Positions 5,036-21,631 of a stretch of DNA of 64,000 nucleotides are shown here, in pieces. Below the pieces are notes generated by a model. The model saw nothing but the letters and a program-made list of their open reading frames with translations, made no database searches and was not told the DNA's origin. The DNA is taken from NCBI GenBank assembly GCA_964291625.2, contig OZ220089.1, positions 352,001 through 416,000 on the forward strand, given 5' to 3'. The DNA comes from Candidatus Latescibacterota bacterium. Its GTDB lineage: Bacteria > Latescibacterota > UBA2968 > UBA8231. The first letter of the stretch is position 1; the number at the start of each line of letters is the position of its first letter. The translations under genes and the position numbers were made by a program.

Positions 5036-8000
5036 AGGTGCTTCCTCTCGATGGTGAGGCGCCGCCGTTCGCAGAACTCCATCATCCGGGGCGTCACCTG
5101 GGCATTGCCCCGCTCTCCCTGGGTGATGACATCGCCGAAGGCATCCACGGCCTTCTGCCATTCGCCCAGCTGCTGATAGCACACCCCCACGTTCATCTTG
5201 GCCGCCAGGCCGCTGGAGGTCATCGAGTACTGCCGCCACACGGCTTCAAGGGGGCCGATGGCTTGGCGGATCAGGTCGTGGTCGTCTTCTGCGAGGGCCC
5301 GGTTGAAGGCCTCCATGGCGCCGCTGTAGTCCCGGAAGGCGACCGCCTCCCGCACGTCCCGCAGCACCCCTTCGGCCTGCCGGGCGGCCTCGGATTCCGG
5401 GAAGTCGGCCTGGAGCCCCTGGAACAACTCGTAGGCCCGGTCGTAGTCGCCGGCGTTGTAGCTCATCTCGGCCAGGGTGTACCTGGCCGTGGGCAGGTGA
5501 CGCCCCCCGGGGTAACGGGTCAGGTATTCCTCCATGGCCTGCCGCACCGCGGCCTGGTGCTCTGCCGAGGGCTCCGCCGGCGCCTCGTTGAGCAGACACC
5601 AGGCGATGTTGTAGAGGGCCTCCTCGGCCAGCCCGGTCTCCGGGAAGCGCCGGATCACCTGTCGGTAGGTCTGGCGGGCCTCCCCGTAGGCCCCCGAGTT
5701 GTAGCGGCTCTCGGCCAGGCGGAAGAGGGCATCGGCGGCCACGTCCAGGTCCGGGTACTGGTCGACCACCCCCGCGAAGAAGGGGATGGCCCTGCTGAAG
5801 CGGGCCTTGTTGAAGTGCGCATAGCCAAGGTAGTACCGGGCATACCCGGCATTCGGATGCCCGGGGTAGTCGGCCAGCATCCGGCCGAAGCTGGCTGCGG
5901 CCAGGGCGGCGGCGTCGGTCTGGAGCGCTGCCAGGCCGCGCAGGAACAGGAGGTCGGCGGCGAAGAAGCCCCTCGGAAAGGCGCGCAGACCCGCGTCGGC
6001 GCGGTCGAAGGCGCGCGCGAAGTCCTCGGTCCGCACCGCGGACTCCGCCTGCAGGAACCAGGCCTTCTCGCGCAAGTGGTACTGCCGCTCCTCCGGGAGG
6101 GGCCCCTCCTTCAGATCCAGCCCGAGGATCTCCTCGCAGGCGGCGAAGGCGTCGGCGTAGCGGCCCTGCCGGTTGGCGATCTCCGCCTCCGCCAGCAGGT
6201 GCTCGGCGCGCTCGAGGGGACCCGCCGCCGCGTCGGCCATCTGCCGGTAGATGGCCTGGGCCTGGCCGTAATCCCCCAGGTTGGCGTAGGCGGCCGCCAG
6301 GAGGCGCCGCGCCGCGGAGGACAGCTCCGGGTCGGTCCACTCCCGGTTCAGCTCTTCGAGGGCCTCGGAGTACCGCTTCATTCGGAACAACAGGGAGCCG
6401 CGGCTGTACGCCGCCCGCTGCCCCAGGTCGGGGTCGCCCTGGTCGATGACCGCGGCGAAATGCGTCAGGGCTCCCTCCTGCTCTCCCAGCTCCATGGAGG
6501 CGGAGGCGAGCAGGTAGTGGAGAGCCTGACCCTCGGGCCGGCCCTTCGCCTCCAGGCCTTCCTGCAGCACCGCCACCGCCTGCCGGTGCTCTCCCTGCCG
6601 CACCAGGAGCTGCCCGGCCTCCAGGCGCGAGCGGGCGAAGAGCTCGGCTTCCCGGCCCACGGCCAGCAGCTCCCTCAGGGCGCGCTCCTGGTTTCCGGCC
6701 TCCCTCTCCACGATGCCCAGCTCGAAGCGGGCCACGTCCTGTTCGGGCTTCTCCGCCAGCTCGTCGATCACCGTGCGATACGTCTTCGCCGCCATGGCGT
6801 GGTCGCCGAGGCCATGGTGGGTCCGGGCGATCTGGAAGAGGGCGCTCTGGCGGTACCCCTCGGCGTTGGGGGCCTCGGCCACGCTTCCCAGAAAGACCAG
6901 GGCCTCACCCATCTTGTCCGGCTGGTCCTGCAACTGGATGGCCAACCCCAGGTTGAACCGCAGCTCCACGTCGTAGGGGGACCCCGGGTAGGCCGCCAAG
7001 GTGGCGCGCAACTCGCTCTCGGCGCGGCGGTAGTAGTCCAGACGCTCCTCTTCCGGTTGCCTCTCCGCCACGCGGAACCAGGCCCGGGCGATCTGCAGGG
7101 CCACGCCCTCGACCGCGAGGCCGGCCCGTGCGGCCGCGGCCTCGTAGTTCGCCCGGTACACCTCGTACTCACGCACCGCCTCCTCGTAGTGCTCGGTCTC
7201 GAAGTAGCGGTTGGCCAGCAGGAGCTGCATGCGCGCCTTCTGCACCACATCGTCGGTCGCCTCGATGGCCTGGTGGTACACGGCGACGACGGCCGCGAAG
7301 TCCCCCCGCCGGTAGTGCATGTCCGCCTGGCGCAGGTACGCCTCTTCGGCCAGCCGCTGCTCCTCGGCGAAACGTGAGGCCACCAGTTGGAAGGCCTCCT
7401 CGGCCTCGGCGTACTGACCGGTCTTCTCGTGGCACTCCCCGACGCGGATGAGGGCCTTGGCCGCCAGGTCGAGAGCCGTCTCGTCCACCAGGCCGGCGAT
7501 CTTCTGCCGCTTCATCTGCAGGATCTCGCGCTCCGACATCTCCTCGATGCGCTGGGAGTCGACCAGCCGCTGGTAGAAGGGGACGGCCTCCCGGTAGTTC
7601 TCCAGCGCGAAGTGGGCCTCGCCGATCTGGAACAGGGCCCGGCTGCCGCGGTAGCCGCCGGGAAAGCGCTCCACGAGACGTTCGAAGGCGGTTATGCTGT
7701 TGCGGTAGTCTTCCCTGTCATAGTGGGCCCAGCCCACATCGTACATCGCCTGCTCCACATAGGCGCTGGACGGATAGCGCTCGATGAGCAGGGCGGCCCC
7801 CTCGATGGTGCGCTCGTAGTCCTGGATGGCGTACCAGCAGGCCACGGCGCGGCTGCGGGCCAGGGCCTTCAGCGCGTCCACGGTGGACAGCTCCTCGGTC
7901 CTGACGAAGGCGTCGGCCGCCTCCCCGAAGAGGGACCTGGCTCGGTCCTGGTACCGGGAGCGCCGCTCCGGGTCGCGGCTCCTGGCCGCGCTGGCGAGGG

Positions 8001-8283
8001 CTTCCTCGGCGGACTTGAAGTGCGCATTCCCGGTCTGGTACAAGGCCACTTCCTGCAGCGGCGCCGAGATTTCGCCGACGGTCACCGCCACGTCCTTCAT
8101 CTGCAGGAAACGGCTCTGGCTCCGGATGATGCGCTGGTAGGCCTCGATCGCCTGGTCGTAGGCTCCCGAGGCGTAGAACCTCTGGGCGTCGGCGAAGGTC
8201 GCCTGCATCTCCGGAGCCGTGGGCACCGACCGGGTGACGGCGATCATCACCGTCAGGCCTACCAGGGTGATCAACGCGACCAT
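5032..8283 (-). CDS. Large tetratricopeptide-repeat protein (BamD/CpoB-like TPRs), N-terminally anchored
   Basis: 1083 aa with many repeats of the type ALFQIGEAHF...Y..A...Y..L...FP.S. Hydrophobic N-terminus. SD-like GAGGT upstream of ATG 8283. Confidence 0.9.
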   Translation of the reverse strand: MVALITLVGLTVMIAVTRSVPTAPEMQATFADAQRFYASGAYDQAIEAYQRIIRSQSRFLQMKDVAVTVGEISAPLQEVALYQTGNAHFKSAEEALASAARSRDPERRSRYQDRARSLFGEAADAFVRTEELSTVDALKALARSRAVACWYAIQDYERTIEGAALLIERYPSSAYVEQAMYDVGWAHYDREDYRNSITAFERLVERFPGGYRGSRALFQIGEAHFALENYREAVPFYQRLVDSQRIEEMSEREILQMKRQKIAGLVDETALDLAAKALIRVGECHEKTGQYAEAEEAFQLVASRFAEEQRLAEEAYLRQADMHYRRGDFAAVVAVYHQAIEATDDVVQKARMQLLLANRYFETEHYEEAVREYEVYRANYEAAAARAGLAVEGVALQIARAWFRVAERQPEEERLDYYRRAESELRATLAAYPGSPYDVELRFNLGLAIQLQDQPDKMGEALVFLGSVAEAPNAEGYRQSALFQIARTHHGLGDHAMAAKTYRTVIDELAEKPEQDVARFELGIVEREAGNQERALRELLAVGREAELFARSRLEAGQLLVRQGEHRQAVAVLQEGLEAKGRPEGQALHYLLASASMELGEQEGALTHFAAVIDQGDPDLGQRAAYSRGSLLFRMKRYSEALEELNREWTDPELSSAARRLLAAAYANLGDYGQAQAIYRQMADAAAGPLERAEHLLAEAEIANRQGRYADAFAACEEILGLDLKEGPLPEERQYHLREKAWFLQAESAVRTEDFARAFDRADAGLRAFPRGFFAADLLFLRGLAALQTDAAALAAASFGRMLADYPGHPNAGYARYYLGYAHFNKARFSRAIPFFAGVVDQYPDLDVAADALFRLAESRYNSGAYGEARQTYRQVIRRFPETGLAEEALYNIAWCLLNEAPAEPSAEHQAAVRQAMEEYLTRYPGGRHLPTARYTLAEMSYNAGDYDRAYELFQGLQADFPESEAARQAEGVLRDVREAVAFRDYSGAMEAFNRALAEDDHDLIRQAIGPLEAVWRQYSMTSSGLAAKMNVGVCYQQLGEWQKAVDAFGDVITQGERGNAQVTPRMMEFCERRRLTIERKHL

Positions 8284-8362: not shown

Positions 8363-11173
8363 TCATTCATCGAAGCCCAGGATGACCCGCAGGAAGGCCG
8401 AGGCGATGTCGAGGTCCTCCCTCTGCCGGGCGGGATCGCCGTACTGGCGCCGGGTCCACTTCACCCCCAGGTTGGTGGCGATGTTGTACCCGAAGTAGGG
8501 GGACCGGTTCGTCAGCTGCACCACCCGCACCACCTCCTCGTAGCTGTCGCGGCCGTCGGCCAGGTCCTCCTTGCGCAGGGGCAGGCCCGGCAGCCCCTGG
8601 GTGCCGAGCCACAGGTAGGTGCGCGGCGTGATGTGACAGGAGGCCTTGAGGATCGGTATCAGGGTCCACTCGTCAGCGAGGTCCACGGCCAGACTCTCCC
8701 GGGTCCTTCGCAGGACCAGTCCCTTGCCCTGGGCGATCAGCTGCCAGCGGTCCGACAGCTCCCTCACGTACTCGGCCCGGGCCACCATCGTCAGGCGGGT
8801 GATGGTGTCGGCAACCTGGTCGCTGCCGTCGGACAGGGTCGCCTCCTGCTGCTCGTTGACCGCATAGCGCAGGTTGCCGCCGAGTCGCAGGCCGGGGGCG
8901 GCGGTCAGGTCGGCCTCGACGTAGTGCTGCCGGTCCAGGCTGTCGCGATACTCCAGCTGGTCCGTCAGCCGGGTGGGGGCGTACGTGGGCCAGTGCTCGT
9001 GCCCGCCCAGGACCTCGCCATAGGTGATGTAGTTGTCGACGATGTCGTCATGGACCCGCTGCAGGCGGGTCTCGGCCCAGACCGAACCCCACCGGGGGTT
9101 GTGGCGGCGGAAGGTGACCACGCCGTAGGTGCTCTCGTTGCGGGCGCCGCTGACGATCCCCTCCGCCCGCAGACGGCCCGCGGTGAGGCGGACGCCGCCG
9201 GGCAGGTGCAGCACCCCGAAGGCGTGGTGCCCGCTCTGATCCAGCTCGTACGGGTAGTCCGAGTCCAGGTCGTCCTCGCGGTGGTCGGCGATCCCGTTGT
9301 TGTTGGCGTCCCGGCCATAGGCATACTCTTCCGGCTCCACGTCGTACAGCAGGAACGCCTCCAGGTAGTCGGGCACCTGGTTGCCGTTGCGGTTGGTGTC
9401 CGGAATCCGGTCGTTGTCCCGGTCGTTGCCCGGAAAGACCCCGTCCGGGTCGTAGGGGATCGTCGTGTAGTGGGGACTCGGCCGATGCCCGTGGCCGATG
9501 TCGGGATAGCGATCGTCGTCGTCGTTGTCCTGCACGAAGCCGCTGTCGTACTCCTCGGCGATCGAGAACAGCTCCCCCCCTGCCTCCACCCGGCCCCGGC
9601 GCCAGCGCCCGTTCACGTAGTACGCGCCCGCGTCCGTGCTGCTGCGCGCCCCGTTCCAGCGGCGGATGCCCCTCACCTCCCGATCCTCGCGGTACCCCGG
9701 CCGGCCGTCGGGAAACTCCCGGAACTCCACGTTGCGGGCGTACTCCCAGCGCACCTCGGCGTCGCCCCACTCCCAGGACCCGTTGAGCCCCCACAGGGCG
9801 CGGCCCGTCCACTCCCCCAGGTCCAGGCGCACCCACTCCAGGTTCGACATGTCCTGCACGTTGCCCCGGGACCGGAGGACGGCGGTCACCCCCGGCGTCT
9901 CCTTCCTCTCGAGGTAGCCGCTCGTGGAGACGAGGGTGTTGCCGCCCACGCGGTAGTGGAACTCGTACTCCTCCACCGCCGGCGCCGAGACGAACAGCGG
10001 CAGCACCTCGACCCGGTAGTCGTTGCCCACCAGCGCCTCCACCTGCACCTGCCGGACGAAGGGCTCCTGGCTCACGTCGAAGATGGCGATGATCTGCTCA
10101 TGGCCGTCGGCGCGATGGCCCGGAACGTCGGGCAGGGCCTCCACCCAGCGCAGCAGCTCCTCCAGGTTGACCTTGTCCGACACGTCCTCGCCCTGCAGGT
10201 GATCGCGCAGGTAGAGCAGGTCCGCGAAGCGCGTGCCCTGATCCAGGTAGACCGCCCGCCGGAACTGTCCGGAGAGCCGGTTCGTCGTGCCCACCGCCGT
10301 TGGATTCTGGCCGTTGATGCGGGCCAGGAAGGGCCGCAGGTCCGGCCGGTCCTCGCCGTTGATCTTCAGACGCACCTCCGATACCAGGGCGCCGGCCTGC
10401 AGGTCCTCCGGCGAATCGTCGGAGAACCGAACCAGGTAGCCCACGGGCAGCACCTGCTCGGCCTGCAGCCCGCCGCGCAGATCGAAGCTCTCCTGCTCGG
10501 CGTCGAAGATGTGGAAGTTCACCCCCGTGGCCCCCAGGGTCAGCGCTCCCAGCTCGACGTCGCCGTGGGCCCCCAGGAGCATCGCCGAGCTGCGGATCTC
10601 GGCGGCCGAGTCCCAGTGGTGCCAGGTGGGACCGCCGCCGTAGCGGCTGTCGGCGAAGGGCCCGGTGTAGCGCTGTCCGATGACGGCCACCCGGGTGTTG
10701 CCCACCTGGGTGTCCAGGCGGATGCCGTCGTATCCCGGCAGGGCCAGCGTCAACGGCGTGAAGAGGGTGCGGATCTCCTCCCCGTAGATCAGGCTCGCCG
10801 CCCACCGGGAGTGCGACTCCCGGGCCACCAGGTTGCGCTCGAAGCGACCGAAACGGGGGAGGGTGCGGAAGGACTTGGGCAGGGCCGACGTCGTCGTCGA
10901 CCGGGTCTCCCGCCACTCGTACACGTCGTAACCCTGAATCAGGAAGTTGCCCAGAGGACCGTAGTAGTTTCGCCGCGAGAACCGGGTGAACTCCGGCAGG
11001 GTGTAGTCCTCGAAGCCGTAGTTGAGGTAGGAGGGATCCGACCGGTAGAGGAAGGAGCGGCCCGAGACGTCCTGGGCGAAGCCGAGATGCGGGTCCTCGG
11101 CCCCCGCCCGACCCGGGTCCCCCCAGGCCGGCACGAAGACCAGCGTCCAGACCGCGAGCCTCGCCCGTCTCAT
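8363..11173 (-). CDS. Uncharacterised exported protein, paralogue A (putative outer-membrane protein with TSP3-like Asp-rich motifs)
   Basis: 936 aa, signal-like N-terminus, DNDDDDRYPD, GVFPGNDRDNDRIPD and DANNNGIADHREDD motifs, amphipathic beta-strand-like C-terminal region. ATGA overlap with the upstream gene. Confidence 0.8.
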   Translation of the reverse strand: MRRARLAVWTLVFVPAWGDPGRAGAEDPHLGFAQDVSGRSFLYRSDPSYLNYGFEDYTLPEFTRFSRRNYYGPLGNFLIQGYDVYEWRETRSTTTSALPKSFRTLPRFGRFERNLVARESHSRWAASLIYGEEIRTLFTPLTLALPGYDGIRLDTQVGNTRVAVIGQRYTGPFADSRYGGGPTWHHWDSAAEIRSSAMLLGAHGDVELGALTLGATGVNFHIFDAEQESFDLRGGLQAEQVLPVGYLVRFSDDSPEDLQAGALVSEVRLKINGEDRPDLRPFLARINGQNPTAVGTTNRLSGQFRRAVYLDQGTRFADLLYLRDHLQGEDVSDKVNLEELLRWVEALPDVPGHRADGHEQIIAIFDVSQEPFVRQVQVEALVGNDYRVEVLPLFVSAPAVEEYEFHYRVGGNTLVSTSGYLERKETPGVTAVLRSRGNVQDMSNLEWVRLDLGEWTGRALWGLNGSWEWGDAEVRWEYARNVEFREFPDGRPGYREDREVRGIRRWNGARSSTDAGAYYVNGRWRRGRVEAGGELFSIAEEYDSGFVQDNDDDDRYPDIGHGHRPSPHYTTIPYDPDGVFPGNDRDNDRIPDTNRNGNQVPDYLEAFLLYDVEPEEYAYGRDANNNGIADHREDDLDSDYPYELDQSGHHAFGVLHLPGGVRLTAGRLRAEGIVSGARNESTYGVVTFRRHNPRWGSVWAETRLQRVHDDIVDNYITYGEVLGGHEHWPTYAPTRLTDQLEYRDSLDRQHYVEADLTAAPGLRLGGNLRYAVNEQQEATLSDGSDQVADTITRLTMVARAEYVRELSDRWQLIAQGKGLVLRRTRESLAVDLADEWTLIPILKASCHITPRTYLWLGTQGLPGLPLRKEDLADGRDSYEEVVRVVQLTNRSPYFGYNIATNLGVKWTRRQYGDPARQREDLDIASAFLRVILGFDE

Positions 11174-13884
11174 CCCTGGAAGGGCTCCAGTCCCAGCAGC
11201 AGGCGGACGAAGAGCAGAGAGCGCTCGACATCGAGCTGCTTCCGGCTCCTGGTCTCGAATCGAAGGGTCTTGGCGAGGTATCCCGCGTTCAGGGTCAGGT
11301 AGTAGCCTTCGTACGTGGTGCGGTTGGTGATGGAGATGATGTAGTCCCTGCTGCCGTAGTCGACCTGGTGGTTGATCAGGTTCCTGTAGGTGCTGGACAG
11401 AAAGGGGAAACCCTGGGCGCCCGCGCTCAGGCTCGTCTGGGGTGACAGGGCGACGGTGGCCACCACCATGGGATAGAAGTAGCGCTCGGAGACGGGATGG
11501 ACATGGAAGTCACCGCCCTGCCGCCGGTAGGCCATGTACTTGGCCCTGGGGGTGACCGTCCACCGGTCCCTCTTCCAGGTGTAGCCGCTGCGCAGGACCC
11601 ACGCCCACTCCTGGATCGTGTCGGCGGGCTGGAAGGCGGAGGCCCGCTGGAGATTGACCGTGTGCTTGAGACGGCTGTTGATCTCCAGGCCCTTCACCCG
11701 GATGAAGGTGGCGTCGAGGTGAGCCGTGTTGACGAAGCTGTTCCTCATCAGCAGCGGGTCTTCGACCTGCGTCAGACCCTGGACGCTCGCCGTCGAGGTG
11801 GGATCGATCGGCAGCCCGTGGGGCGTGAAGAAACCGAACTGGGGCGAATCGTCGGCGATGTCGTCATGGACCCGCTTGAGGAAGTTGGAGAAGTCGATCG
11901 AGGCATGGGGAAAGAGGGTGCGCCGGTAGTTCAGGCGCACATAGTTGACGCGGTTCTCGCCCGGCCCCCAGATCTCGCGGACATGGTAGCGCCCCACGCT
12001 CAGGTCCAGGGCCTGCACCGGCTCGATGGCGCCGAACAGGTGATACCCCTTCCTGTCCGTCGGATAGGGGTAGTCGGGCCGGAAGTCGTCCTCGCGGTGA
12101 TCGATGACCCCGTTGTTGTTCATGTCGTCGCCGTAGTCGTACTCCAGGGGATCGACATTGTAGAGCAGGAAGGGCTCGTTGTAGTCGGGCTCGGCGTTGC
12201 CGTTCTCGTTCACGTCGGTGCGGCCGTCCTGGTCGCGGTCGAGGCCCGGGAAGACGCCGTCCCCATCGCCGAAGCTCTTGTTGAGGAAGTGGAAGTCGGG
12301 CCACAGGTCCTTGTCGTCGTTGTCGTCCACCGTGTCGAGAATGACGGTGTCGTTGTACCTGTCCTGCCAGTTGGGAGCGACCTCCCCGAGGAAGGGACTG
12401 CCGAGGTCATCGGAGTAGGTCCAGTATTCCCGGCTCTGGACGGAGAGGGATGTGCCGTACAGGGGATCCATCCGGAAGAGCTCTCCCGCCAGGTGGAACC
12501 AACCGAGCTGCTTCCTGGCGTGGACGAAGAAGGCATCCGCCGTCTCCCGGTGCCAGCGGCTCCGTCCGATCGTGCTCGGATACTGGAGGTAGTTGAAGCT
12601 GCGGGCGTACTCGCCGCGCACCTCGAGTCCCTCCCGCTCCAGCTCCAGGCGCAGGCTGCCCGTGGTACGGCCGCTCTGTCGGCCGTACTCGAAGGAGACG
12701 CGGCGCAGATTGCCCAGGTCCCCCACGTTCCCCACCTGGGACGCCACGTCGCGGAAGAAGGTGGCCCGCACGACCCGGAGATCCGGGTTGCTGGTGGTGG
12801 CCGCCGCGGCGGGCAGGAAGACCTCGGACAGACTGATGCGGTAGTCGTTGGCCACCATGGCGTTGAATCGAAGGGACTCGACCTCGTCGCGCATCTCCTG
12901 GGGGATCTTGAACCAGTAGATGAGGTACTCGGTGCCGTTGGCCTCCAGGAAGCCCTGGGCGCCGGGGTCCTCAAGGGGCAGGTCCCCCTTGAGGAACTCG
13001 ATGTAGGGGGGAATCGTGAAGCCCGGCCGGAAGGCCCTGTCCCCGTTCGGAAAGTGTGGATTCACCACGTCGGCGTCGTGGCGCGTCACGCTGACTTCCA
13101 CGAGCTCGTTGAGAGGGCCCTCGACGCGAACATCGTAAACCCGCGCGCCACGTCCATCGTCCTCCGAGCCATCGCTGATCTTGACGGCCAGATAGGCGGG
13201 CGGGTTCTTCCGCCGCGAGGGCAGCACCCCCTTGAGGCTGTTGTCGCCAAAGCCGACGAAGCTGTCGGTGCGCAGGAGGTTGGCGTAGGAGAGGCTCACC
13301 CTCAGGGCTCCCGCCCTGTGCGCGAGGTGACCGCCCAGCAGGTAGGTGGGCTCGTTCGTCAACTGGTGGAAGTCGTTGTCGTCGTCGTTGTAGATCGGCC
13401 AGTCGAAGCGCGACGACACGGCGGTGGCCTGCGTGCCTCCGAGATCCACGTCCCAGCGGATCCCGTTCAGCTGGGCCAAGTCCAGGGTCAGGGGAGTGAA
13501 CTTGGTCCGTATCCGGTTCCCCACCATCAGCCGGCTGGCCCAGCTCTTGTGGGTATCGTGGGCGACGACGAGGTTGCCCACGAGGGCCCGGAACTGGGGG
13601 TCCTTGTTCAACAGGCTCCCGGGATCCCGCTCCATGGGCCGCGTCTCCTGGCTGCGCCAGACTTCGGTGCCGTCGAGGAGGAAGTTGCCCAGCTCGTCGA
13701 AGACGGGAGCCCGGATCTGCGACCACAGAGAGGCCGTGTACTCCCTGTACCCGGAGCGCGCGTAGTATTGCTCGTAGTCGCGGACCGGCTCGTAGAGGAG
13801 CTGGCTCTCCCCGGGTGCCGAGGAGAGTACCAGCCAGGCCCCCAGGAGAGCAGCAGCGAGACCAGGACGTTTGTGCACCGTCAT
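11170..13884 (-). CDS. Uncharacterised exported protein, paralogue B (same family)
   Basis: Start reassigned to ATG 13884 (MTVHKRPGLAAALLGAWLVLSSAPGESQ, a signal peptide), 2 nt after the upstream stop. Shares FTPLTL, GIRWD, LLGGH, DDNDDKDLWPD, GVFPGLDRDQDG and NNNGVIDHREDD motifs. Confidence 0.8.
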   Translation of the reverse strand: MTVHKRPGLAAALLGAWLVLSSAPGESQLLYEPVRDYEQYYARSGYREYTASLWSQIRAPVFDELGNFLLDGTEVWRSQETRPMERDPGSLLNKDPQFRALVGNLVVAHDTHKSWASRLMVGNRIRTKFTPLTLDLAQLNGIRWDVDLGGTQATAVSSRFDWPIYNDDDNDFHQLTNEPTYLLGGHLAHRAGALRVSLSYANLLRTDSFVGFGDNSLKGVLPSRRKNPPAYLAVKISDGSEDDGRGARVYDVRVEGPLNELVEVSVTRHDADVVNPHFPNGDRAFRPGFTIPPYIEFLKGDLPLEDPGAQGFLEANGTEYLIYWFKIPQEMRDEVESLRFNAMVANDYRISLSEVFLPAAAATTSNPDLRVVRATFFRDVASQVGNVGDLGNLRRVSFEYGRQSGRTTGSLRLELEREGLEVRGEYARSFNYLQYPSTIGRSRWHRETADAFFVHARKQLGWFHLAGELFRMDPLYGTSLSVQSREYWTYSDDLGSPFLGEVAPNWQDRYNDTVILDTVDDNDDKDLWPDFHFLNKSFGDGDGVFPGLDRDQDGRTDVNENGNAEPDYNEPFLLYNVDPLEYDYGDDMNNNGVIDHREDDFRPDYPYPTDRKGYHLFGAIEPVQALDLSVGRYHVREIWGPGENRVNYVRLNYRRTLFPHASIDFSNFLKRVHDDIADDSPQFGFFTPHGLPIDPTSTASVQGLTQVEDPLLMRNSFVNTAHLDATFIRVKGLEINSRLKHTVNLQRASAFQPADTIQEWAWVLRSGYTWKRDRWTVTPRAKYMAYRRQGGDFHVHPVSERYFYPMVVATVALSPQTSLSAGAQGFPFLSSTYRNLINHQVDYGSRDYIISITNRTTYEGYYLTLNAGYLAKTLRFETRSRKQLDVERSLLFVRLLLGLEPFQG

Positions 13885-13886
13885 GG

Positions 13887-16739
13887 CTACAGGATCCGAG
13901 CCTGGATGAAGAACTCGCTGAGCCGCTGGACCCGCCGGCTCGGCAGGTTGACGAACTCGGAGCGGCTGGAACGGAATCCGAGGTTCGTGCTCACGTCGTA
14001 GCCGGTGTAGTTGCTCAGGTTCTGGATGAGGACGATCCAGTGCCGGGCGTCGAAATCCCTTGACGGCGCCTTGGCCTCGCGGAACCGGTGGAGCCACGGC
14101 AGTCCCTGCACGCCCGCGCGAAGAGTCGTGTCCTCACTCAGCGCGTAGTCGGCCCGCAGAATGGGGATGATCTCGTGGCTCTCCAGGGGCATGAGGAGAT
14201 CACCCGGCGCCGTCCTCCGCCGCAGGGTGAACTTCACCATCGGACTCAGAGTCAGCCTGCCTCTGACATGGGCGTAATCGGCCTTGCTCACCAGGCTCCA
14301 GTCGAGGATGTCGTCCCCCAGTCCCGGCCGGCTGTCCCTGCGGTTGTTCCACTCGACCTTGGCTGCCTGGATGAGGTTCAGTCCCTCGACGCCGGTGTAG
14401 TGGCCCTTGGCGAAGAGGGTGCTCACGAGGCTGTTTTCCATCAGCATGAGATCGGGCCGCGGACGGATGGCGACATTGACCTGGGTCTGGGGCTCGATCA
14501 CCGCCTCGAAGAGTGGGTTGGGTATGTCGTCGCGTACCCGCTTGAGACGCCAGCGGGCGATGAATCGCCCCGCTTCGCTCCCTTCCGCCGTGTAACCGAG
14601 CTCTCCATAGGTCACCTCGTTTCGGCCTGCCGCCGCTCGCTGCCGGACCCGGTACCGCCCGAGGCGCAGCCCTGCTCTCTCGAAGGGTTGCACCGAGGCA
14701 AAGCCGTGGTAGCCCCGACTGTCCAGGTCATAGGGGAGGTCCGCCTTGTTGTCGTTCTCGCGCACGTCGACCACGCCGTTGTTGTTGAAGTCCTCCCCGT
14801 ACACGAAGTCGTCGGGTTCGACGTAGTACATGAGGAAGGGCTCGAGATAGTCCGGGTACTGGTTGCGGTTGACGTTGGTGTCCACCACCCCGTCCTCGTC
14901 CTGATCCAGGCCCGGGAAGACCCCGTGCCCGCCGCCCAGGCCGTACTCCCCGGCCGCATCGGGCCGGATGGCGTCCACGTCGATCCCCGAGGCGTTGGCA
15001 TAGGCTATGTAGACGGGGTCCAGAGGGTCCCAGTGTTCCACCTTGTCCGGCCACTCGTCGCCGTCGTCGTTGTCCTCCACCAGGTCCCACCCCAGGACGG
15101 CCTGCTGGCCCTCGGACCACACGGGCAACGAGACCTGGTAGGTCGGAGGGACGTGGAAGATCTCCAACCCCACGTCCCCCAGGGACCACTCCTGCAGGAG
15201 ACGCACGTACCACGCGTTCGTGGCGCGGTTCTCCCGTCGCCCCAGGAAGGGGAACCGGGCGTGCTGGACGTTGCTGATGTACTCCGCCTCCAGGTTGGCC
15301 CCGCCGATCTTCGCCTCCACCGTGCTGCCGAACTGGACCAGACCCGTGGGGAAGCCGTAGTCGACGGTGACCCAGCCCATGTTGGACCCGTCCTGCACGT
15401 TCCCCGGCGCCCGCTTGACGTTGTGCCAGTCGCTCCAGAGCGACGTGCCGCCGCCGAAGAAGCCATAGGCGGCGCCCACGTCCAGGCTGTAGTCCCCCGA
15501 CACCTGCACCCGGAACCGCAGGCTCTGCGGATCACCGGGCACCTCGTAGCGCAGTACCAGCAGGTCCGTGCCGCCCACCTGGAGGGGGAAGGGCTCCTCC
15601 ATGGGGATGCCCTCCCTGGCGAAGAGTCCCGAACGCTCGACGAAGATCCGGTCGGCGTTGAAGATCCGCGGGGCCCACGCTCCGTCCCGGCGGATGTGGG
15701 GAACCTCGCTCACCTCCACGACCTGGGGGATCAGCTTCACCTCGGGATCCACGTCCAGCCGCTGCTGACCGGCGTACAGCTCCACGGCGTACACATCGAC
15801 ACCGTGCTCATCCTCCGGCGAGTCGTCGCTGATGACCAGGTAGAAGGAGGAGGTGCCGGTCAGACGGGAAGGGACATCCCCGCGGAGGCTCGTGTTCCGC
15901 TGGGCCGCATCCTGCAGGTGTAGGTTCACGTAGGATGCGCCGAAGGTCAGGATGTCGCCGAACTGGCTGCTCCAGTGGCCGCCGAAGAGGTAGTGGGTGA
16001 AGTGACGGTCACCCGTCAGCGGCCGGGGCACGCGGGACGAGATCAGGGAGAAGCTGTTGCGGTGGGAGGACGCGTCCCAGCGGAGCCCCTCCAGACGGGA
16101 GAGGTTCAGGGTCAGCGGAGTGAACCGGCCGTCGAGGAGGTTGCCGATCATGAACCGGGTGGACCAGCCCCCGAAGGCGTCACGGAGGATCACCATGTTG
16201 CGGAACCGGCCCAGGCCCCAACCCGGCACCCTGCTGCTGCGCGCGGGGTCCAGGGTGCCGTACTCCTCGATCCGCAGGATCTCCACGCCGTCGACCAGGT
16301 AGGAACCGAAGGGATCGTAGGTGGGACGCTCGGGGCGGAATCCGTAGTCCCGGTAGCTGAGGAAGCTGTAGTTCTCGTAGCGCTCGTCCCAGAGCGGACG
16401 CAGCTCACGGTTGAGGAAGTCCTGCTGGCCCGACCAGTAGTCCTCGGGGGAACGCTGCGCCAGGCAGGGCTCGGCCAGACTGCCCGCCAGCACCGACAGG
16501 GCAAGACCTGCCACGGCCGCGCGCACTCTGCGGCCAGCGCATCCGGCGGCGGGCCACCGGCCGGCGCGGGGGCCGCCGGCGATCAGGTGGCCCGCATGGA
16601 GCTGGAGCCGATGGAAAGGACCGTCCCGGAGCCGGGACGCGGCCCGGTGCCCAACCTGGGTGCCAATCTCAAGGACAGGCGCAACCCCTCCGGGCCCATC
16701 ACCCGTGCCGTTCGTCGTCTCGGAGGCCTCGGTTGGCAA
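13887..16739 (-). CDS. Uncharacterised exported protein, paralogue C (same family); true start may be GTG 16526
   Basis: Same motif set (FTPLTL, GLRWD, LFGGH, SDDSPED, GNVQDGSN, DNDDGDEWPD, GVFPGLDQDEDG, NNNGVVDVREND). The signal peptide VRAAVAGLALSVLAGSLAEPCLAQ begins at 16526. Confidence 0.75.
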   Translation of the reverse strand: MPTEASETTNGTGDGPGGVAPVLEIGTQVGHRAASRLRDGPFHRLQLHAGHLIAGGPRAGRWPAAGCAGRRVRAAVAGLALSVLAGSLAEPCLAQRSPEDYWSGQQDFLNRELRPLWDERYENYSFLSYRDYGFRPERPTYDPFGSYLVDGVEILRIEEYGTLDPARSSRVPGWGLGRFRNMVILRDAFGGWSTRFMIGNLLDGRFTPLTLNLSRLEGLRWDASSHRNSFSLISSRVPRPLTGDRHFTHYLFGGHWSSQFGDILTFGASYVNLHLQDAAQRNTSLRGDVPSRLTGTSSFYLVISDDSPEDEHGVDVYAVELYAGQQRLDVDPEVKLIPQVVEVSEVPHIRRDGAWAPRIFNADRIFVERSGLFAREGIPMEEPFPLQVGGTDLLVLRYEVPGDPQSLRFRVQVSGDYSLDVGAAYGFFGGGTSLWSDWHNVKRAPGNVQDGSNMGWVTVDYGFPTGLVQFGSTVEAKIGGANLEAEYISNVQHARFPFLGRRENRATNAWYVRLLQEWSLGDVGLEIFHVPPTYQVSLPVWSEGQQAVLGWDLVEDNDDGDEWPDKVEHWDPLDPVYIAYANASGIDVDAIRPDAAGEYGLGGGHGVFPGLDQDEDGVVDTNVNRNQYPDYLEPFLMYYVEPDDFVYGEDFNNNGVVDVRENDNKADLPYDLDSRGYHGFASVQPFERAGLRLGRYRVRQRAAAGRNEVTYGELGYTAEGSEAGRFIARWRLKRVRDDIPNPLFEAVIEPQTQVNVAIRPRPDLMLMENSLVSTLFAKGHYTGVEGLNLIQAAKVEWNNRRDSRPGLGDDILDWSLVSKADYAHVRGRLTLSPMVKFTLRRRTAPGDLLMPLESHEIIPILRADYALSEDTTLRAGVQGLPWLHRFREAKAPSRDFDARHWIVLIQNLSNYTGYDVSTNLGFRSSRSEFVNLPSRRVQRLSEFFIQARIL

Positions 16740-16746
16740 GTTGCTC

Positions 16747-18813
16747 TCAGTAAACCACCCCTACGACGCCAGTGGCGGTTTCGGTCCCGGCATCGAGCTC
16801 CACCTGGACGCGGTAGATGTAGTTGCCCGGCGGCACGAGCCGGCCCTCGTCGTCCCTGCCGTCCCAGTATCCGGGGACGATGCCTCGGGCCCCGCTGACG
16901 AGGCGCAGGTAGACGCCGGCCGCCAGGGGGGCCGGCTTCAGATCGCGCACCAGAGTGCCCCGGAGGTCGAAGATGCGCACTCCCAGGTCGCGGGGCGTGT
17001 CGACCTTGCTGAGAATCAACTCGATGACGGTGTCGTCGTTGATGTCGTCGCCGTTGGGTGTGAAGACGGAGGGATTCGCGCGGACCCTCGACAGGGCATT
17101 CTCGGTGGAGGTCGTGGGGACCACCGCCCAGGAGAAGAGCTCGCCCGTGCTCTCGTCCATACCGACGCTCTCGGCCACGTTGACGGGGTTGTCCGAACCC
17201 GGGCTGAAGAGGAACATGCGGAACTCGTGGCTGTTCGCATGGGAGCGGGCCCGAAAGGGTATCTGCAGCTGGTCGATGTCGCGAAGCGGCTCGGTAAAGG
17301 CGAGTTCCAGCGCATCCTGGGTGGAGGTCCAGTCCGCCAGAATCCCCTGGAGCCGACCGTCGTCGACCAGCCGGGCCTCGCTGGGGACGGCGATGAGCAG
17401 CCGCTCGATCCCCGCGTCTTCGGGGGCAAAGACCAGGTGCAGGGTGCACACGAAGAGGGTGTCCGCGCCCATTGAGACCCGGTTGGGCGCAACCCTGGAA
17501 TGGGCGCCCGAAACGGCGAGTTCCTCGATGGTGTAGTCCAGCTCCAGGCTGTGCAGCGCCGGCGTGCGCCGCTGATCCCTGGACTCCAGGGAAACCCGGT
17601 ACTGGAGCCAGGCCCCCGGCTCCGAAGCGGGGAACCAGACGTCTCCACTCGACAAGGGACTGCTCCAACCGCGCCCGGGATCCTCGAAGTCCTCCGTCGA
17701 GTTCCCCGTCCGGAACTGGACGAAGAGATCGGTGCGCACGGGGACCTCCGCATCCCAGCGGACCCGGCCGAAGTTCTTGGCCTGGCCGGGCGCGCCAAGG
17801 GAGAGGGGCTCGGAGAGATAGGTGCCCTCATCGGTGTACCCGTCTCCGTAGACCTCCACCTCGGCGACCTTGGGCGGGCTCACCGAGTTGATGTCGACGA
17901 TCACGATACGCACATACCGGGTCCAGACCGGTGTGAAACGCACCTCCGTCCAGTCGAACTTCTCGATATCGTGTCTGACGCCCACTTCGGTCCAGCGGAC
18001 CTGGTCGTCGCTGACCTGTACCGAGTAGCCCCTGAGCGAATTCTCCTCCAACTGGCCAGGATTGCTCCCTCTTGTGACGACGCGGACGCTGCTGACGTTG
18101 CGCCTCACCTGCAGGTCGACGCTGGCCGAGTAGTTGAGGGCCGAGGTCGGGGGGTCCCAGGAGGTGTTCAGCTTCCCGTCCACGACCTCCTTGCGGTTGC
18201 TCGGTTTGTCCAGGGCCAGATTCCGGCCGCGAATCTGACTCAGAACCAGGCTTCCCTGCCGGGTGCCCACATCGATCCCCGCCTCGAACCCGGAGACGAC
18301 CTCGATCTCCGGGTCGAGCAGGTCCTGGATCCGGGCGCGCTCGACCGATCCCTGCTGTACGGTCTGCCACGCGGCATCATCCTCGGGATCTGCCGTCGTC
18401 CACTCCAGGCCCTGCTGCTCCGCGGCGGTCCAGTACCATCCCTGCACCACCTGGTTCGTGGTCGTCTCGATGCGGTACTCGTCGGTGACCACCGCGGCGA
18501 TCAGGCCGTTGCCGCCGCCGCCGCCGCGGTTGACGACCTTCACGGCGATGTCATTCCCCGACTTGCCGTCCTGGACCTCGATGGCATAGGCCTGCATCCG
18601 GGTACCGAGGGAATCCCCGCCGAGGAGCACGCCGTTGAAGTAGACCTCGTAGCTGTCCACGGCGGCTACGTGGAGCTGGCCCTCGAGAGGGGCCTCGGAA
18701 ACGAAGTTGGTACGGAAGTAGGAGGTGCTGCGCCACGAACTCTGCTCCCACGTCTGCGCGGTCGCCGCAGCCGTGCAGCAGAGCACGATCAGGGAGGTGA
18801 AGCGGATAGACAT
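16747..18813 (-). CDS. Secreted protein with F5/8 type C (discoidin/CBM32-like) domain and C-terminal FlgD-Ig / gliding-motility-associated CTD
   Basis: Signal peptide MSIRFTSLIVLCCTAAATAQ from ATG 18813. NLALDKP...VVDGKLNTSW...YSVQVSDDQVRW...TRYVRIVI...VAEVEVYG is discoidin-like. FTPNGDDINDD...IFDLRGTLVR...WDGRDDEGRLVPPGNYIY is FlgD-Ig/CHU_C-like. Confidence 0.85.
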   Translation of the reverse strand: MSIRFTSLIVLCCTAAATAQTWEQSSWRSTSYFRTNFVSEAPLEGQLHVAAVDSYEVYFNGVLLGGDSLGTRMQAYAIEVQDGKSGNDIAVKVVNRGGGGGNGLIAAVVTDEYRIETTTNQVVQGWYWTAAEQQGLEWTTADPEDDAAWQTVQQGSVERARIQDLLDPEIEVVSGFEAGIDVGTRQGSLVLSQIRGRNLALDKPSNRKEVVDGKLNTSWDPPTSALNYSASVDLQVRRNVSSVRVVTRGSNPGQLEENSLRGYSVQVSDDQVRWTEVGVRHDIEKFDWTEVRFTPVWTRYVRIVIVDINSVSPPKVAEVEVYGDGYTDEGTYLSEPLSLGAPGQAKNFGRVRWDAEVPVRTDLFVQFRTGNSTEDFEDPGRGWSSPLSSGDVWFPASEPGAWLQYRVSLESRDQRRTPALHSLELDYTIEELAVSGAHSRVAPNRVSMGADTLFVCTLHLVFAPEDAGIERLLIAVPSEARLVDDGRLQGILADWTSTQDALELAFTEPLRDIDQLQIPFRARSHANSHEFRMFLFSPGSDNPVNVAESVGMDESTGELFSWAVVPTTSTENALSRVRANPSVFTPNGDDINDDTVIELILSKVDTPRDLGVRIFDLRGTLVRDLKPAPLAAGVYLRLVSGARGIVPGYWDGRDDEGRLVPPGNYIYRVQVELDAGTETATGVVGVVY

Positions 18814-18840
18814 CAGGAGGTTTCCCCTGCCGATAGAAAC

Positions 18841-18874
18841 AAATGGGTGGCCGGTTTGCACCGGCCACCCATTT
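18841..18874 (-). terminator. 15-bp perfect hairpin with GCAA tetraloop between the first and second genes of the operon (attenuator or stabiliser)
   Basis: Minus strand AAATGGGTGGCCGGT-GCAA-ACCGGCCACCCATTT followed by GTTTCT. Confidence 0.7.
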
Positions 18875-18916
18875 CCCGAGTCAGGCTGCTCTCAACAAGA
18901 GACGCCCGCAGGCCGC

Positions 18917-20758
18917 TTACTTGAGCAGAGTTACGCGCTTGCTCTCGGCAAAGCTCCCGGCGACCATCCGGAATACATAGACCCCGCTGCCGACCTTGGC
19001 GCCGCGAGAGTCCGTGCCGTCCCAGGTGACGTGGTAGGAACCGGGATCCAGCATCTGGTCGACCAGTCTGGCCACCTCCTGGCCGGCCACGTTGTGCACG
19101 GTCAGGGTCACCGACTCGTGCAGTTCGGGAACGGCGATGCGGACCGTGGTCTCGGGGTTGAAGGGGTTCGGGAAGGCGTCACCCAGTGCGAAGGCTCCGG
19201 GCTTTGCCCCCTCGACTTCGGAGATCCCGCTTTCCAACTCACCAACCCGTGCCCGGGCGATGTCCATTGGGAAGTGCGCCAGATAAGGCCCGGCCCCCAC
19301 GCCGATGTACAGCCCGTCGGCCTCGTTGTCGTTGTCCATCAACATGGCGATGCCGCCGAGTGCGCCCGGGGGCATGTGGATTCCCACGTTGAGCTTGAAC
19401 AGACCGAACCCGTCGGGTCCCAGGACCGTGGCCCATTCAGGCGCTTCCCAGCCGCCGACGAGGCTGATTCCCCAGCGGGTGGCCAATATGCTGATCGGAA
19501 TGTTCGAAGGGATCCCCAGGGCCTCCCTCTCCTCACTGGTGTAGTAGTCGAGGTAGAAGTCGCCGTTCTGGTTCTTCCAGACCAGATTGAGGTCGTGATC
19601 GGTCTTCGTCGGGCCCGCTCCGGGGCGCCCGAGATAACTGGTCCCGTAGTAGCCCGTGTCGTCGACATCGAACCCGGCCACGGACTTGAAGTTTCTGGGG
19701 GCGCCTTCGTCGTTGTAGACCTGCGGGAAGTAGTCCAGGAAGGACAGGACGTCCACCAGCTCTCCGGTGGCGCGGTCGAACCTCTGCACCGCGGGACCTG
19801 GCGAACCGTAGGGCTCCACGTGGTCGGCGACGGTGGCGTAGAGCAGGCCGTCGTCGGCAACCCAGGGATGGTGTCGGGCGTTGGTCACCATGGTGGTGAT
19901 GCCGCGAACCTCCATTGCGATGTACCCGCCGTCGGCGTTCTCCCAGCTCTCGTCCAGCAACGCGGTGCCCGCCTCGCGATCGATGATCGCTCGGTACAGG
20001 CCGCCCGGCGGGTTCTGGAAGCGGATGACGTACGCCACTCCGTCCTCGGCCGGATCCATCTGCAGGTAGCCGACGTCCTTCCAGTCGTTCCCGCTCTCGG
20101 CCGGAACCGCGTTGACCCACGGGATGGCGAAGGTCTCGAAGGCTTCGGGATTGGCGAGCAGGTCGGTGCCCATTTCGCTCACCCTGATGTTCCACACGCC
20201 ATCGATCTGCTGGGGGAACCAGATCTCCGGGGGGCTCTTCGTGTCGTCGACCACCGAGTTCTGCCAGGGGGCCATGGTCCCGCCCGCGTAGGTGGGCTTG
20301 GAGTCGACGTCGATGGCGAACAGGTAGGTCCTGTAGGCGCCGGAAGCCACCGCCGCTCCCGTGTAATCCGTGCCGTCCCAGGTGATGGTGTTCGAGCCCG
20401 CGTCGAACCGGTCTCCGGCACTGATGTAGACCAGGGTATCCAAGCCGGCGGCGCGGATCAGGCTCTGCTCGATGCCTCCCACCCCGAAAGGCTCTCCGCC
20501 GTACTGGGGATCGGCATCCAGGGTGTACACGGCGAGCCAGACCATGGCCGAGGGAACGCCTTCGATGGTGAAAGGGATCTCGAGCGGGGAACCGTCAAAA
20601 CTGTGGTCCACGTCCTCGGTCGAGAGTTTCAGCACCGTCGGCGCACCACCCTTCCAGTGGGCGTCGAAGCTCTGCCAGTCCGGGTTCGACTGGCCGAAAT
20701 CGTTTGCCGCGACCGTCCCGACCAGCCCGGAACACAGCAGAAGGATCGCCTTTTTCAT
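18917..20758 (-). CDS. Secreted protein with N- and C-terminal FlgD-Ig domains and T9SS type A-like C-terminal sorting domain
   Basis: ATG 20758 preceded by AAGGAG. Signal MKKAILLLCSGLVGTVAA. ITWDGTDYTGAAVASGAY near the N-terminus. AFPNPFNPETT...VHNVAGQEVARLV...WDGTDSRGAKVGSGVYVFRM...KRVTLLK at the C-terminus. Confidence 0.85.
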   Translation of the reverse strand: MKKAILLLCSGLVGTVAANDFGQSNPDWQSFDAHWKGGAPTVLKLSTEDVDHSFDGSPLEIPFTIEGVPSAMVWLAVYTLDADPQYGGEPFGVGGIEQSLIRAAGLDTLVYISAGDRFDAGSNTITWDGTDYTGAAVASGAYRTYLFAIDVDSKPTYAGGTMAPWQNSVVDDTKSPPEIWFPQQIDGVWNIRVSEMGTDLLANPEAFETFAIPWVNAVPAESGNDWKDVGYLQMDPAEDGVAYVIRFQNPPGGLYRAIIDREAGTALLDESWENADGGYIAMEVRGITTMVTNARHHPWVADDGLLYATVADHVEPYGSPGPAVQRFDRATGELVDVLSFLDYFPQVYNDEGAPRNFKSVAGFDVDDTGYYGTSYLGRPGAGPTKTDHDLNLVWKNQNGDFYLDYYTSEEREALGIPSNIPISILATRWGISLVGGWEAPEWATVLGPDGFGLFKLNVGIHMPPGALGGIAMLMDNDNEADGLYIGVGAGPYLAHFPMDIARARVGELESGISEVEGAKPGAFALGDAFPNPFNPETTVRIAVPELHESVTLTVHNVAGQEVARLVDQMLDPGSYHVTWDGTDSRGAKVGSGVYVFRMVAGSFAESKRVTLLK

Positions 20759-20929
20759 GAGTTGCTCCTTTTCTCCGCCCTCCATGACGAGCCCGGTTCA
20801 ATCCGGCTTTGAGGGGTGAGATTTGGTTCGTGACCTGCTATCTCCATGCCGGGTTTCGGCAGGGCCACTAAAGAGGCCACTATTGATTCTGCCTGCGGCT
20901 CAATCCTTTGGCTCCTTCTCGTTCAATAA

Positions 20930-20960
20930 CACCATTACCACCCTTTTTCGTGTATGTCAA
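20930..20960 (-). promoter_or_regulatory. Putative sigma70 promoter for the envelope operon
   Basis: Perfect TTGACA (20960-20955) followed by TGGTAATGGT, an imperfect -10, in a locally AT-rich intergenic region. Confidence 0.45.
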
Positions 20961-20961
20961 G

Positions 20962-20999
20962 AGAAAAAACAGGCCCGCGTCCCACCTGGGGCGCGGGCC
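20962..20999 (-). terminator. Rho-independent terminator after the small lipoprotein gene
   Basis: Minus strand GGCCCGCGCCCC-AGGT-GGGACGCGGGCC (one mismatch) followed by TGTTTTTTCT. Confidence 0.7.
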
Positions 21000-21021
21000 A
21001 CGGTTGACGCTTATGTTTCGC

Positions 21022-21525
21022 TTATGATCCGCTTTCCGGATCAGAATACCCCTCGGGCCCTGATCCCTCTGCCTCGCCCGCCTTGATCCTCACGGGGTCA
21101 GACCCGACCGAGATGAACCTGGTCCGCGGGTTGAGGGTGAGTTTGTCGTAGTTCCCGAAGGGCCGCCAGCGCTTGGCCCCCGGGGTGGTCATGGTCTGGG
21201 GCTCGGCGTCCGGCGCCTCGACACCGATCATCCGCAGAGCCTCCTCCTCATCGAAAGGATCCATCCCTTCGAATCTGTAGCTGACATAGCTCGCCTCCCC
21301 CGCCTTAATTACCACGAAGACCCGTACACCCGTACCGAGCACATCCTGCCACAGCAGGTGCCCGAACCTCTTTCCCGAGTCCTGGACGTTCTGCATGGGT
21401 TCTCCCCAGCGCTCGATCAGTTGTGCCTCGCTCGTCCCGAGCACCTCGTGCACATCCAGCGGCGGCCGCTCCCGGGAGCAGGACACGCCGAGAACCAGGA
21501 CTGTGACGGCCAGTGCGATTCGCAT
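21022..21525 (-). CDS. Hypothetical lipoprotein
   Basis: 167 aa with a clear lipoprotein signal MRIALAVTVLVLGVSC, followed by a terminator. Confidence 0.75.
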   Translation of the reverse strand: MRIALAVTVLVLGVSCSRERPPLDVHEVLGTSEAQLIERWGEPMQNVQDSGKRFGHLLWQDVLGTGVRVFVVIKAGEASYVSYRFEGMDPFDEEEALRMIGVEAPDAEPQTMTTPGAKRWRPFGNYDKLTLNPRTRFISVGSDPVRIKAGEAEGSGPEGYSDPESGS

Positions 21526-21631
21526 CCGGATCCGATCCCTGTCTTCAACTCGCTCTGAAGCCCGGCACCTCCCGGCATCGGGCCGAGAGCCGCAAAATAA
21601 GCCGGACTCGACGGATTGTCGATCGAGTCAG

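Follow-up and report, generated by a model that had tools for sequence, protein, structure and literature searches.

Three adjacent genes of a Candidatus Latescibacterota bacterium encode anciently diverged members of an unnamed protein family that structure prediction identifies as very large outer-membrane beta-barrels. We name their products C, B and A, in the order in which the genes are read. What is new is that C, B and A represent three old clades, with the order C-B-A kept in 15 of 17 loci. The genes lie on the minus strand of a 64,000-nucleotide stretch of DNA, called the window throughout (positions 352,001 to 416,000 of contig OZ220089.1, assembly GCA_964291625.2). The window also carries a lone, inverted duplicate of A, here called A'. 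The family members and the two main insertions of A are as follows.

13887..16526, minus strand: barrel C, first of the trio (879 aa, GTG start, signal peptide; position-1 clade)
11170..13884, minus strand: barrel B, second of the trio (904 aa; position-2 clade)
8363..11173, minus strand: barrel A, third of the trio (936 aa; AlphaFold2 model with about 26 strands)
9818..10501, minus strand: loop-4 inserted domain of A, residues 225-452 (228 residues), between strands 7 and 8
9239..9559, minus strand: loop-6 Asp/Asn cassette of A, residues 539-645 (107 residues), between strands 11 and 12
21632..24436, plus strand: A', an inverted copy of A that stands alone (86.6% identical to A in protein)

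Three old clades in a fixed order

C, B and A are three old clades in a fixed order and make up an old unit. Family open reading frames (ORFs) were collected from the bacterium's own genome and 70 related loci. The 161 sequences were reduced to 154 by removing exact duplicates and then to the 138 that span the family profile. A maximum-likelihood tree was built on these full-length sequences, with 23 exact duplicates or partials dropped. The genes at trio position 1 form one clade (n=17, support 1.0), as do those at position 2 (n=18, support 1.0), and these two clades are sisters (support 0.97). Genes at position 3 fall into two groups (n=16, support 0.83; n=5, support 0.60), both basal within a larger clade of 92 sequences; that clade also includes a radiation of 71 barrels that are single or were duplicated recently. 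The midpoint outgroup of the tree is a further clade of 11 singles.

In 16 of 17 loci C is followed by a B-clade gene; the seventeenth has at that place an incomplete family gene, truncated by the end of the locus. A-type genes then follow in 15 of these 17 loci; one locus cannot be judged because its DNA ends, and at locus L063 the remaining 1.9 kb contains no A. The exceptions in arrangement are L091, which reads C-B-B-A, and L071, which has B without an adjacent A. A first-pass annotation, made from the window's letters and ORFs, had suggested testing whether the A, B and C clades always co-occur.

Arrays that are complete within the fetched DNA comprise 49 singles, 11 pairs and 16 trios. 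We considered a general preference of the family for arrays of three and rejected it: 12 of the 16 trios are of the C-B-A type, and the rest of the family shows no such preference. Other genomes also contain tandem trios of recently diverged, single-type barrels (L038, L062, L067 and L072; L042 overlaps the kind seen at L038). These arose independently and are separate from the ancient C-B-A trio.

The three genes of the window are tightly packed. The window has about 70% G+C and abounds in long spurious frames, and third-position G+C picks out one coding frame per place. G+C is 0.64-0.68 over the barrel genes and their upstream neighbours (window 10001-22000), versus 0.70-0.75 in much of the remaining window. 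The minus-strand ORFs run from 8363 to 11173 (936 aa), from 11170 to 14097 (975 aa) and from 13887 to 16739 (950 aa). Because a signal peptide lies directly after each, we take the ATG at 13884 as the likely true start of B and the GTG at 16526 as that of C, shortening the two proteins to 904 and 879 aa. The ATG of B then lies 2 nucleotides (nt) past the stop of C, and the ATG of A overlaps the stop of B. In one C-type gene of this genome, an apparent in-frame TGA proved to be merely its stop codon, read through by the search.

BLASTP aligns the three proteins over about 900 residues, with identities of 29.0% for A and B (E 4e-83), 27.7% for A and C (E 1e-67) and 30.3% for B and C (E 2e-96). 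At the sequence level this likeness is far above chance and marks A, B and C as paralogues. The first-pass annotation had described three divergent paralogues and a fourth copy at 21632, and these E values, together with a four-way alignment of A, B, C and A' (about 150 invariant columns), agree with it. All the motifs it listed are in register in that alignment: GN/SF/YL..G, FTPLTL, LLGAH, SDDSPED, GNV.D..N, DNDD.D..PD and GVFPG.D.D.D, the block N.N.N..PDY.E.FL...YG.D.NNNG..D.RE.D...D.PY, and the C-terminal endings FLRVILGF/FVRLLLGL/FFIQARIL.

A' is a near copy of A, with 91.0% DNA identity over 2724 nt, and the DNA similarity is confined between the gene borders. Differences between the two proteins concentrate in loop 1 (5 of 7 positions) and loop 3 (12 of 24), against about 10% in the strands, which suggests surface-directed diversification. 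The lone inverted arrangement of A' recurs in three related metagenome-assembled genome (MAG) records (L024/L029, L025/L026 and L027).

The family is unrecognised, as had been claimed from the letters. None of A, B, C and A' matched a Pfam family at E<=0.01, and NCBIfam gave only noise for the four barrels (E 0.02 and 0.099). Among PDB sequences, A had no match at E<=1, and a 72-sequence family profile had one irrelevant match (E 0.094). A full-length match to a characterised family was looked for in these searches and none was found. The 30 nearest clusters in the ESM Atlas are all unnamed hypothetical proteins from Latescibacterota or Gemmatimonadota; the nearest named cluster, DUF6029 (score 0.89), is a lead only. 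Full-text literature searches, covering the articles themselves, turned up no publication on it. Longer, fused forms were searched for without success, though this counts as weak evidence.

The family is also large. A word-indexed search returned 71 relatives, and those with names are all called hypothetical. An exhaustive profile search returned 753 clusters (50% identity) at E<=0.001, 242 of them at E<=1e-30. Paralogues were counted per genome: the bacterium's own genome (5.9 Mb, 95% complete) has 25 ORFs of the family, namely four trios in tandem, A', a pair and additional singles. Among 40 related genomes, the family is present in 24 of 24 from the same taxonomic family and in none of 16 from three other families of the class (E<=1e-20). 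Across the phylum, 106 of 168 genomes carry barrels at E<=1e-30. These genomes represent 10 of 14 families, and the 61 genomes searched from the remaining four yielded no barrel. A single genome can have as many as 100 first-look candidates. Relatives in public records come from MAGs that bear the label Candidatus Latescibacterota or Gemmatimonadaceae. The sequencing runs that hold the window itself are mostly labelled sponge metagenome (20 holders, 12 studies).

Predicted fold and the acidic cassette

A is predicted to be a large outer-membrane barrel with an inserted globular domain, in keeping with the large beta-barrel and inserted domain that had been proposed from the sequence. AlphaFold2, run on A with a 72-sequence alignment, gave a mean predicted local distance difference test score (pLDDT) of 85.3 and a predicted template-modelling score (pTM) of 0.84. 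About 26 long strands, as read from the DSSP string without coordinates, occupy residues 77-224, 453-538 and 646-934. Even strands are followed by turns of 2-4 residues (8 in one case), odd strands by longer loops. The modelled topology is the usual outer-membrane barrel pattern, with both termini periplasmic. About 50 residues precede the first strand, and the model contains no long helix. The prediction was thus checked for the presence of a barrel, and a barrel is what it holds.

The inserted domain is the 228-residue loop 4. Folded alone with a 55-sequence alignment, it gave a beta-sandwich with two helices (pLDDT 81.1). Foldseek returned no match to this domain at E<=0.001, and the best VIA Z-score was 6.0, to generic Ig-like sandwiches.

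Foldseek searches with the whole model of A returned outer-membrane barrels only. The top match is MtrB (6r2q_B; E 1.9e-9, TM-scores 0.26/0.34, 7% identity), followed by SlpA at ranks 2-4 (E 2.7e-8, TM-score 0.19) and, further down, by OmpG, SusC, TonB-dependent transporters, FimD, LptD and SprA. An independent structure aligner run against 48,161 chains gave Z-scores of 10-13 to many barrels, none of which stands out. When VIA re-ranked the top 1000 Foldseek matches, trimeric SlpA (8ae1_A) came first (Z 14.9, root-mean-square deviation 8.0, 416 aligned residues), with AlgE and OccK porins less than 1 Z behind it. SlpA_C (PF21620) is also the sole Pfam family touched by homologues of the trio: 16 of 50 match it at E<=0.01, with 15-30.2 bits against a cut-off of 35, always at profile positions of about 232-304, and none of the four window proteins does. 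These sub-threshold matches and its places in the Foldseek and VIA lists make Deinococcus SlpA, weakly, the closest barrel known.

The loop-6 cassette is the most conserved part of the barrel family. Over its core (82 residues, 72 sequences) the mean top-residue frequency is 0.67, and 25 columns are at least 90% conserved. In the same 72 sequences, 378 strand residues reach 0.43 with 20 such columns, loop 4 reaches 0.35 and loop 3 reaches 0.14. Loop 6 of A has a pLDDT of 75-95 despite containing no regular secondary structure.

Four loops within the cassette carry Asp or Asn at relative positions 1, 3, 5 and 9, and two of them also carry Glu at position 12: N550/D552/D554/D558, D584/D586/D588/D592, N594/N596/N598/D602/E605 and D622/N624/N626/D630/E633. 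All of these positions are invariant in A, B, C and A', and most are at least 90% conserved in the 72 sequences. The spacing 1-3-5-9(-12) is that of EF-hand and DxDxDG-type calcium loops, and the acidic or amide side chains that the rule for such loops places at 1, 3, 5 and 9 (and 12) are present in the cassette. Profile searches gave little. The cassette of A matched no Pfam family at E<=10. Among 52 cassettes, EF-hand_5 (E 0.52), Excalibur (E 0.99) and FG-GAP (E 0.01) were each matched once, and these isolated hits are non-significant. A cassette profile found nothing significant in the PDB, with parvalbumin and ALG-2 only at E 0.6-0.8. The cassette probably binds Ca2+, a well-founded inference. 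The first-pass annotation had likewise proposed a calcium-binding loop; that proposal draws on motifs only, four conserved loops of the right acidic spacing, and no calcium-binding family matches significantly.

Gene neighbourhood and possible roles

The trio sits between two genes for putative surface proteins and a set of periplasmic or membrane-anchored proteins. The two upstream proteins bear C-terminal domains (CTDs) of the kinds associated with type IX secretion systems (T9SS). All five genes are on the same strand as the trio, and one of their products is rich in tetratricopeptide repeats (TPRs).

18917..20785, minus strand: secreted protein with type-A T9SS CTD (Pfam FlgD_ig, E 3e-18)
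16747..18861, minus strand: surface protein with F5/8 type C (discoidin) domain and type-B-like T9SS CTD (F5_F8_type_C E 2e-14, CHU_C E 4e-6)
5032..8283, minus strand: TPR protein, 1083 aa, with N-terminal membrane anchor (many TPR families, YbgF- and BamD-type repeats)
3806..5239, minus strand: DUF4159 protein with N-terminal transmembrane helix (Pfam DUF4159, E 1e-27)
2521..3771, minus strand: lipoprotein with AgmX/PglI-type (TonB-C-like) C-terminal domain (NCBIfam NF033768, 53.4 bits against a cut-off of 40; LLSC lipobox)

The type-A protein scores 21.9 bits to TIGR04183 (cut-off 23) and has a Por_Secre_tail-type tail ending KRVTLLK. The discoidin-type protein has a signal peptide, and its tail holds FTPNGDDINDD and ends VVY. 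The lipoprotein also matches tonB_Cterm at 20 bits, under that model's cut-off.

This neighbourhood is conserved around the trios. At all four trios of the bacterium's own genome the order is type-A-CTD gene, type-B-CTD gene, C, B, A and then the TPR protein of about 1100 aa. Two of the other own-genome trios add DUF5683, ExbB, one or two ExbD and DUF4340. Loci L031, L093 and the divergent L087 read CTD-A, CTD-B, C, B, A, DUF5683-like, DUF4159, ExbB, ExbD and TPR. ExbB/ExbD are found in trio loci L012/L015 and L087, and the DUF4159 gene is also present in the examined trio loci L012, L014, L087 and L093. Single barrels of the own genome have one to three type-B-CTD genes before them and a SurA-like peptidyl-prolyl isomerase after. 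For 21 of the genome's 25 barrels a type-B-CTD gene lies at most 9.5 kb upstream on the same strand, and two of the remaining four sit at the edge of the fetched DNA. In 12 of 16 arrays, including all four trios, this gene ends at most 270 nt from the first barrel. The type-B CTD model has 15 sub-threshold matches in this genome.

Parts of a secretion route for such proteins are also encoded. The own genome has a homologue of the T9SS translocon SprA (G000:C1:99638-104335, a 2117-aa frame matched in three pieces, 607 bits summed), and PorV-like genes score under their cut-off (114 bits against 250). Whole-genome searches for GldM and PorP_SprF gave no match, but their controls were silent too and absence is not shown. 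Judged by Bacteroidota models, the phylum's T9SS seems to be missing parts. Contigs from two libraries recorded as metatranscriptomic cover parts of the genes for A, B, C, both CTD proteins, the TPR protein and the DUF4159 protein. A 3.1-kb contig from a relative about 91% identical, corresponding to window 17804-20771, runs over the type-A CTD gene and into the lectin-like gene, of which it takes in the N-terminal half. Its library is metatranscriptomic by record, and its depth is 49 versus 1-15 for the barrel contigs, figures that cannot rank expression.

We tentatively favour the reading that C-B-A is a hetero-oligomeric docking platform for T9SS-secreted surface proteins, and we give it somewhat less than an even chance. 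C, B and A would be the anciently diverged subunits, each a barrel of about 26 strands bearing an extracellular loop-4 beta-sandwich and the loop-6 acidic cassette, which probably binds several Ca2+ and would stiffen or fill the barrel mouth. Because the genes are translationally coupled and the order C-B-A is kept across genomes, we infer that the three barrels assemble 1:1:1, most simply as a trimer like the distantly similar SlpA. The first-pass annotation had proposed a possible hetero-oligomeric pore; the fixed company of C, B and A and the weak resemblance to trimeric SlpA lend its hetero-oligomer part indirect support. The complex would dock the two proteins encoded upstream, the type-A-CTD protein and the discoidin-type, lectin-like type-B-CTD protein, both of which would leave the cell through the organism's SprA-type T9SS. 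The PorP/SprF barrels of Bacteroidota are small, and the trio barrels would fill their role for type-B cargo. On the periplasmic side the complex would have ties to the membrane-anchored TPR protein, the DUF4159 protein and the TonB-C-like lipoprotein, with ExbB/ExbD joining these at other copies. As a whole, the assembly would act as a surface capture device for glycans or particles. The analysis establishes the family, the fold prediction, the pattern of conservation, the clades with their order and the gene surroundings; Ca2+ binding, joint assembly, docking of the CTD proteins and the substrate are proposals built on these.

Several observations weigh against this docking role. An anchor would need far less than a barrel of about 26 strands, for which a role as a channel is equally natural. 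Every resemblance to SlpA is either sub-threshold or equalled by unrelated porins. The CTDs fall under curated cut-offs, with TIGR04131 scoring 18-28 bits against 35. An upstream CTD gene was detected for only 14 of 74 barrels of the 'o' radiation in other genomes, by a detector that considered ORFs of at least 350 aa over three jackhmmer rounds only. Loci L040 and L065 have no same-strand CTD gene, and A' stands alone. Finally, contigs from the RNA libraries may derive from DNA and can neither rank expression nor show operon structure.

The main rival makes the barrels nutrient uptake channels, akin to SusC or to specific porins. They would import glycan fragments caught by the neighbouring lectin-like proteins, either passively or driven by ExbB/ExbD and the TonB-C-like protein. 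We judge this unlikely, though well worth weighing. The very wide barrel of about 26 strands suits it, and SusC and other TonB-dependent transporters are among the fold matches. The surroundings include many glycan-related genes: the F5/8 type C protein, three DUF4838 proteins, an FG-GAP/carrageenase-like propeller, an FGE-sulfatase-domain protein, a GDSL protein and DUF6785/6784 proteins. ExbB/ExbD occur in the trio loci named above, and of the 27 DUF6785 genes about 11 have a barrel at most 25 kb away. Yet the barrels carry no Plug domain, while the same genome has 24 canonical Plug-bearing transporters. The local TonB-C-like protein is a lipoprotein, not a membrane-anchored TonB, and the two big loops more likely occlude the lumen. 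This role also gives no reason for three fixed subunits.

Two groups of flanking genes may concern glycan use. Three DUF4838 and two DUF6785/DUF6784 membrane-protein genes lie in adjacent pairs at window 24439-28501, 30254-32197 and 37504-41972. The own genome has 27 DUF6785 genes in all, and the DUF6785/DUF6784 proteins may be an inner-membrane partner of barrel loci. The module is further flanked by a 1169-aa FG-GAP/lambda-carrageenase-like propeller (33994-37503) and by the 279-aa FGE-sulfatase-domain protein (1681-2520). Both fit a use of sulfated polysaccharides.

Another role would be that of dedicated export or assembly pores, usher- or translocon-like, by which the neighbouring surface proteins would cross the outer membrane or be inserted into it independently of SprA. 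FimD/PapC ushers, SprA, LptD and MtrB are among the fold matches; the best of them, MtrB (E 1.9e-9), sheathes a partner protein, and SurA-like chaperone genes accompany single-barrel loci. Against this, the TM-scores are low (0.26/0.34) and the Z-scores are tied with those of plain porins. Moreover, an export route already exists, since T9SS-type CTDs are found on the neighbours and SprA is encoded in the genome. We regard such pores as very unlikely.

If the docking platform is extended to the whole envelope, the trio becomes an obligate, calcium-stabilised C-B-A heterotrimer. It would form the outer-membrane core of a self-contained machine, with T9SS-delivered lectins outside and a bridge of TPR, DUF4159 and TonB-C-like proteins to an ExbB/ExbD proton motor; single-barrel cassettes, of which a genome has dozens, would be simplified, homo-oligomeric offshoots. 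We think this conjecture improbable. If true, it would describe an envelope-spanning machine for energised polysaccharide capture and import in Latescibacterota-type bacteria that owes nothing to SusC/SusD.

The family matters on several counts. To our knowledge, few outer-membrane barrels exceed 22 strands, and every known example (LptD, MtrB, SlpA, SprA, ushers) marks out an envelope process of its own. Here is an unnamed barrel family of hundreds of clusters that takes up a sizeable share of the genome in its carriers and, outside Bacteroidota, is linked to cargo of T9SS type. In its oldest form it is a fixed set of three paralogues, which, if confirmed, would be the first hetero-oligomeric giant-barrel assembly. 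The trio would offer a structural target of three co-expressed subunits with a conserved calcium-type cassette. It also bears on polysaccharide capture by uncultured, sponge-associated bacteria without SusC/SusD.

Comparison with known systems

A close parallel is with PorP/SprF. In Bacteroidota, as two papers describe, type-B CTD cargo binds cognate PorP/SprF barrels encoded alongside (PMC9143113, PMC12618676). In both that system (SprB-SprF; PG1035-PorP-PorE) and ours, the barrel gene lies directly downstream of a type-B-like CTD gene, a TPR-containing periplasmic partner is encoded alongside, and SprA is present in the genome. The differences are considerable. None of A, B, C and A' matches PF11751 in Pfam, and the trio barrels have about 900 aa, about 26 strands, two large loop domains and three fixed paralogues. 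The trio loci also encode a type-A CTD protein, and binding of cargo by the barrels is here proposed from analogy.

SusC/SusD loci resemble those of the trio in pairing a barrel with surface proteins of glycan-binding type, glycan-related enzymes and nearby ExbB/ExbD, and in their expansion of paralogues. However, the trio barrels lack a Plug domain (PF07715), which the same model finds in 24 genes elsewhere in the genome, and no SusD-like gene is present. SusC and other TonB-dependent transporters have 22 strands, against about 26 in the trio, and the surface partners of the trio carry T9SS CTDs and are not lipoproteins. A paper on Latescibacteria mentions unspecified porins and Plug-domain receptors (PMC4454575).

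MtrB and LptD have 26 strands, near the count for the trio, and both enclose a partner protein. Their VIA Z-scores of 10.8-11.5 are, however, no better than those of ordinary porins, and no cytochrome or Lpt genes lie near the trio.

SlpA is a homotrimer of barrels with 28-30 strands; metal sites coordinated by Asp stabilise the insertions in its lumen, and it may serve as a scaffold instead of a pore, according to the SlpA study (PMC9388160). Like the trio barrels, it is a giant single-chain barrel with large insertions that bear acidic metal-type sites. The trio could, in the same way, be an abundant structural scaffold of trimeric barrels that organises or stiffens the outer membrane or carries a surface layer, with no specific tie to CTD proteins. 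The weak but repeated links to SlpA, the metal-stabilised lumen insertions of that proposed scaffold and the strong conservation of the acidic cassette point this way. In contrast, the trio barrels have neither an SLH domain (by Pfam) nor a coiled-coil stalk (in the model), and they have about 26 strands. The gene order with the CTD genes is tightly conserved, and a housekeeping component would not be expected to sit in variable loci, to number 25 diverged copies in one genome or to reach about 100 first-look candidates in relatives. We consider a pure scaffold quite improbable. As a docking platform, the trio would be a heteromer of three paralogues where SlpA is a homotrimer, and by analogy the SlpA trimer may offer a model for how C, B and A come together.

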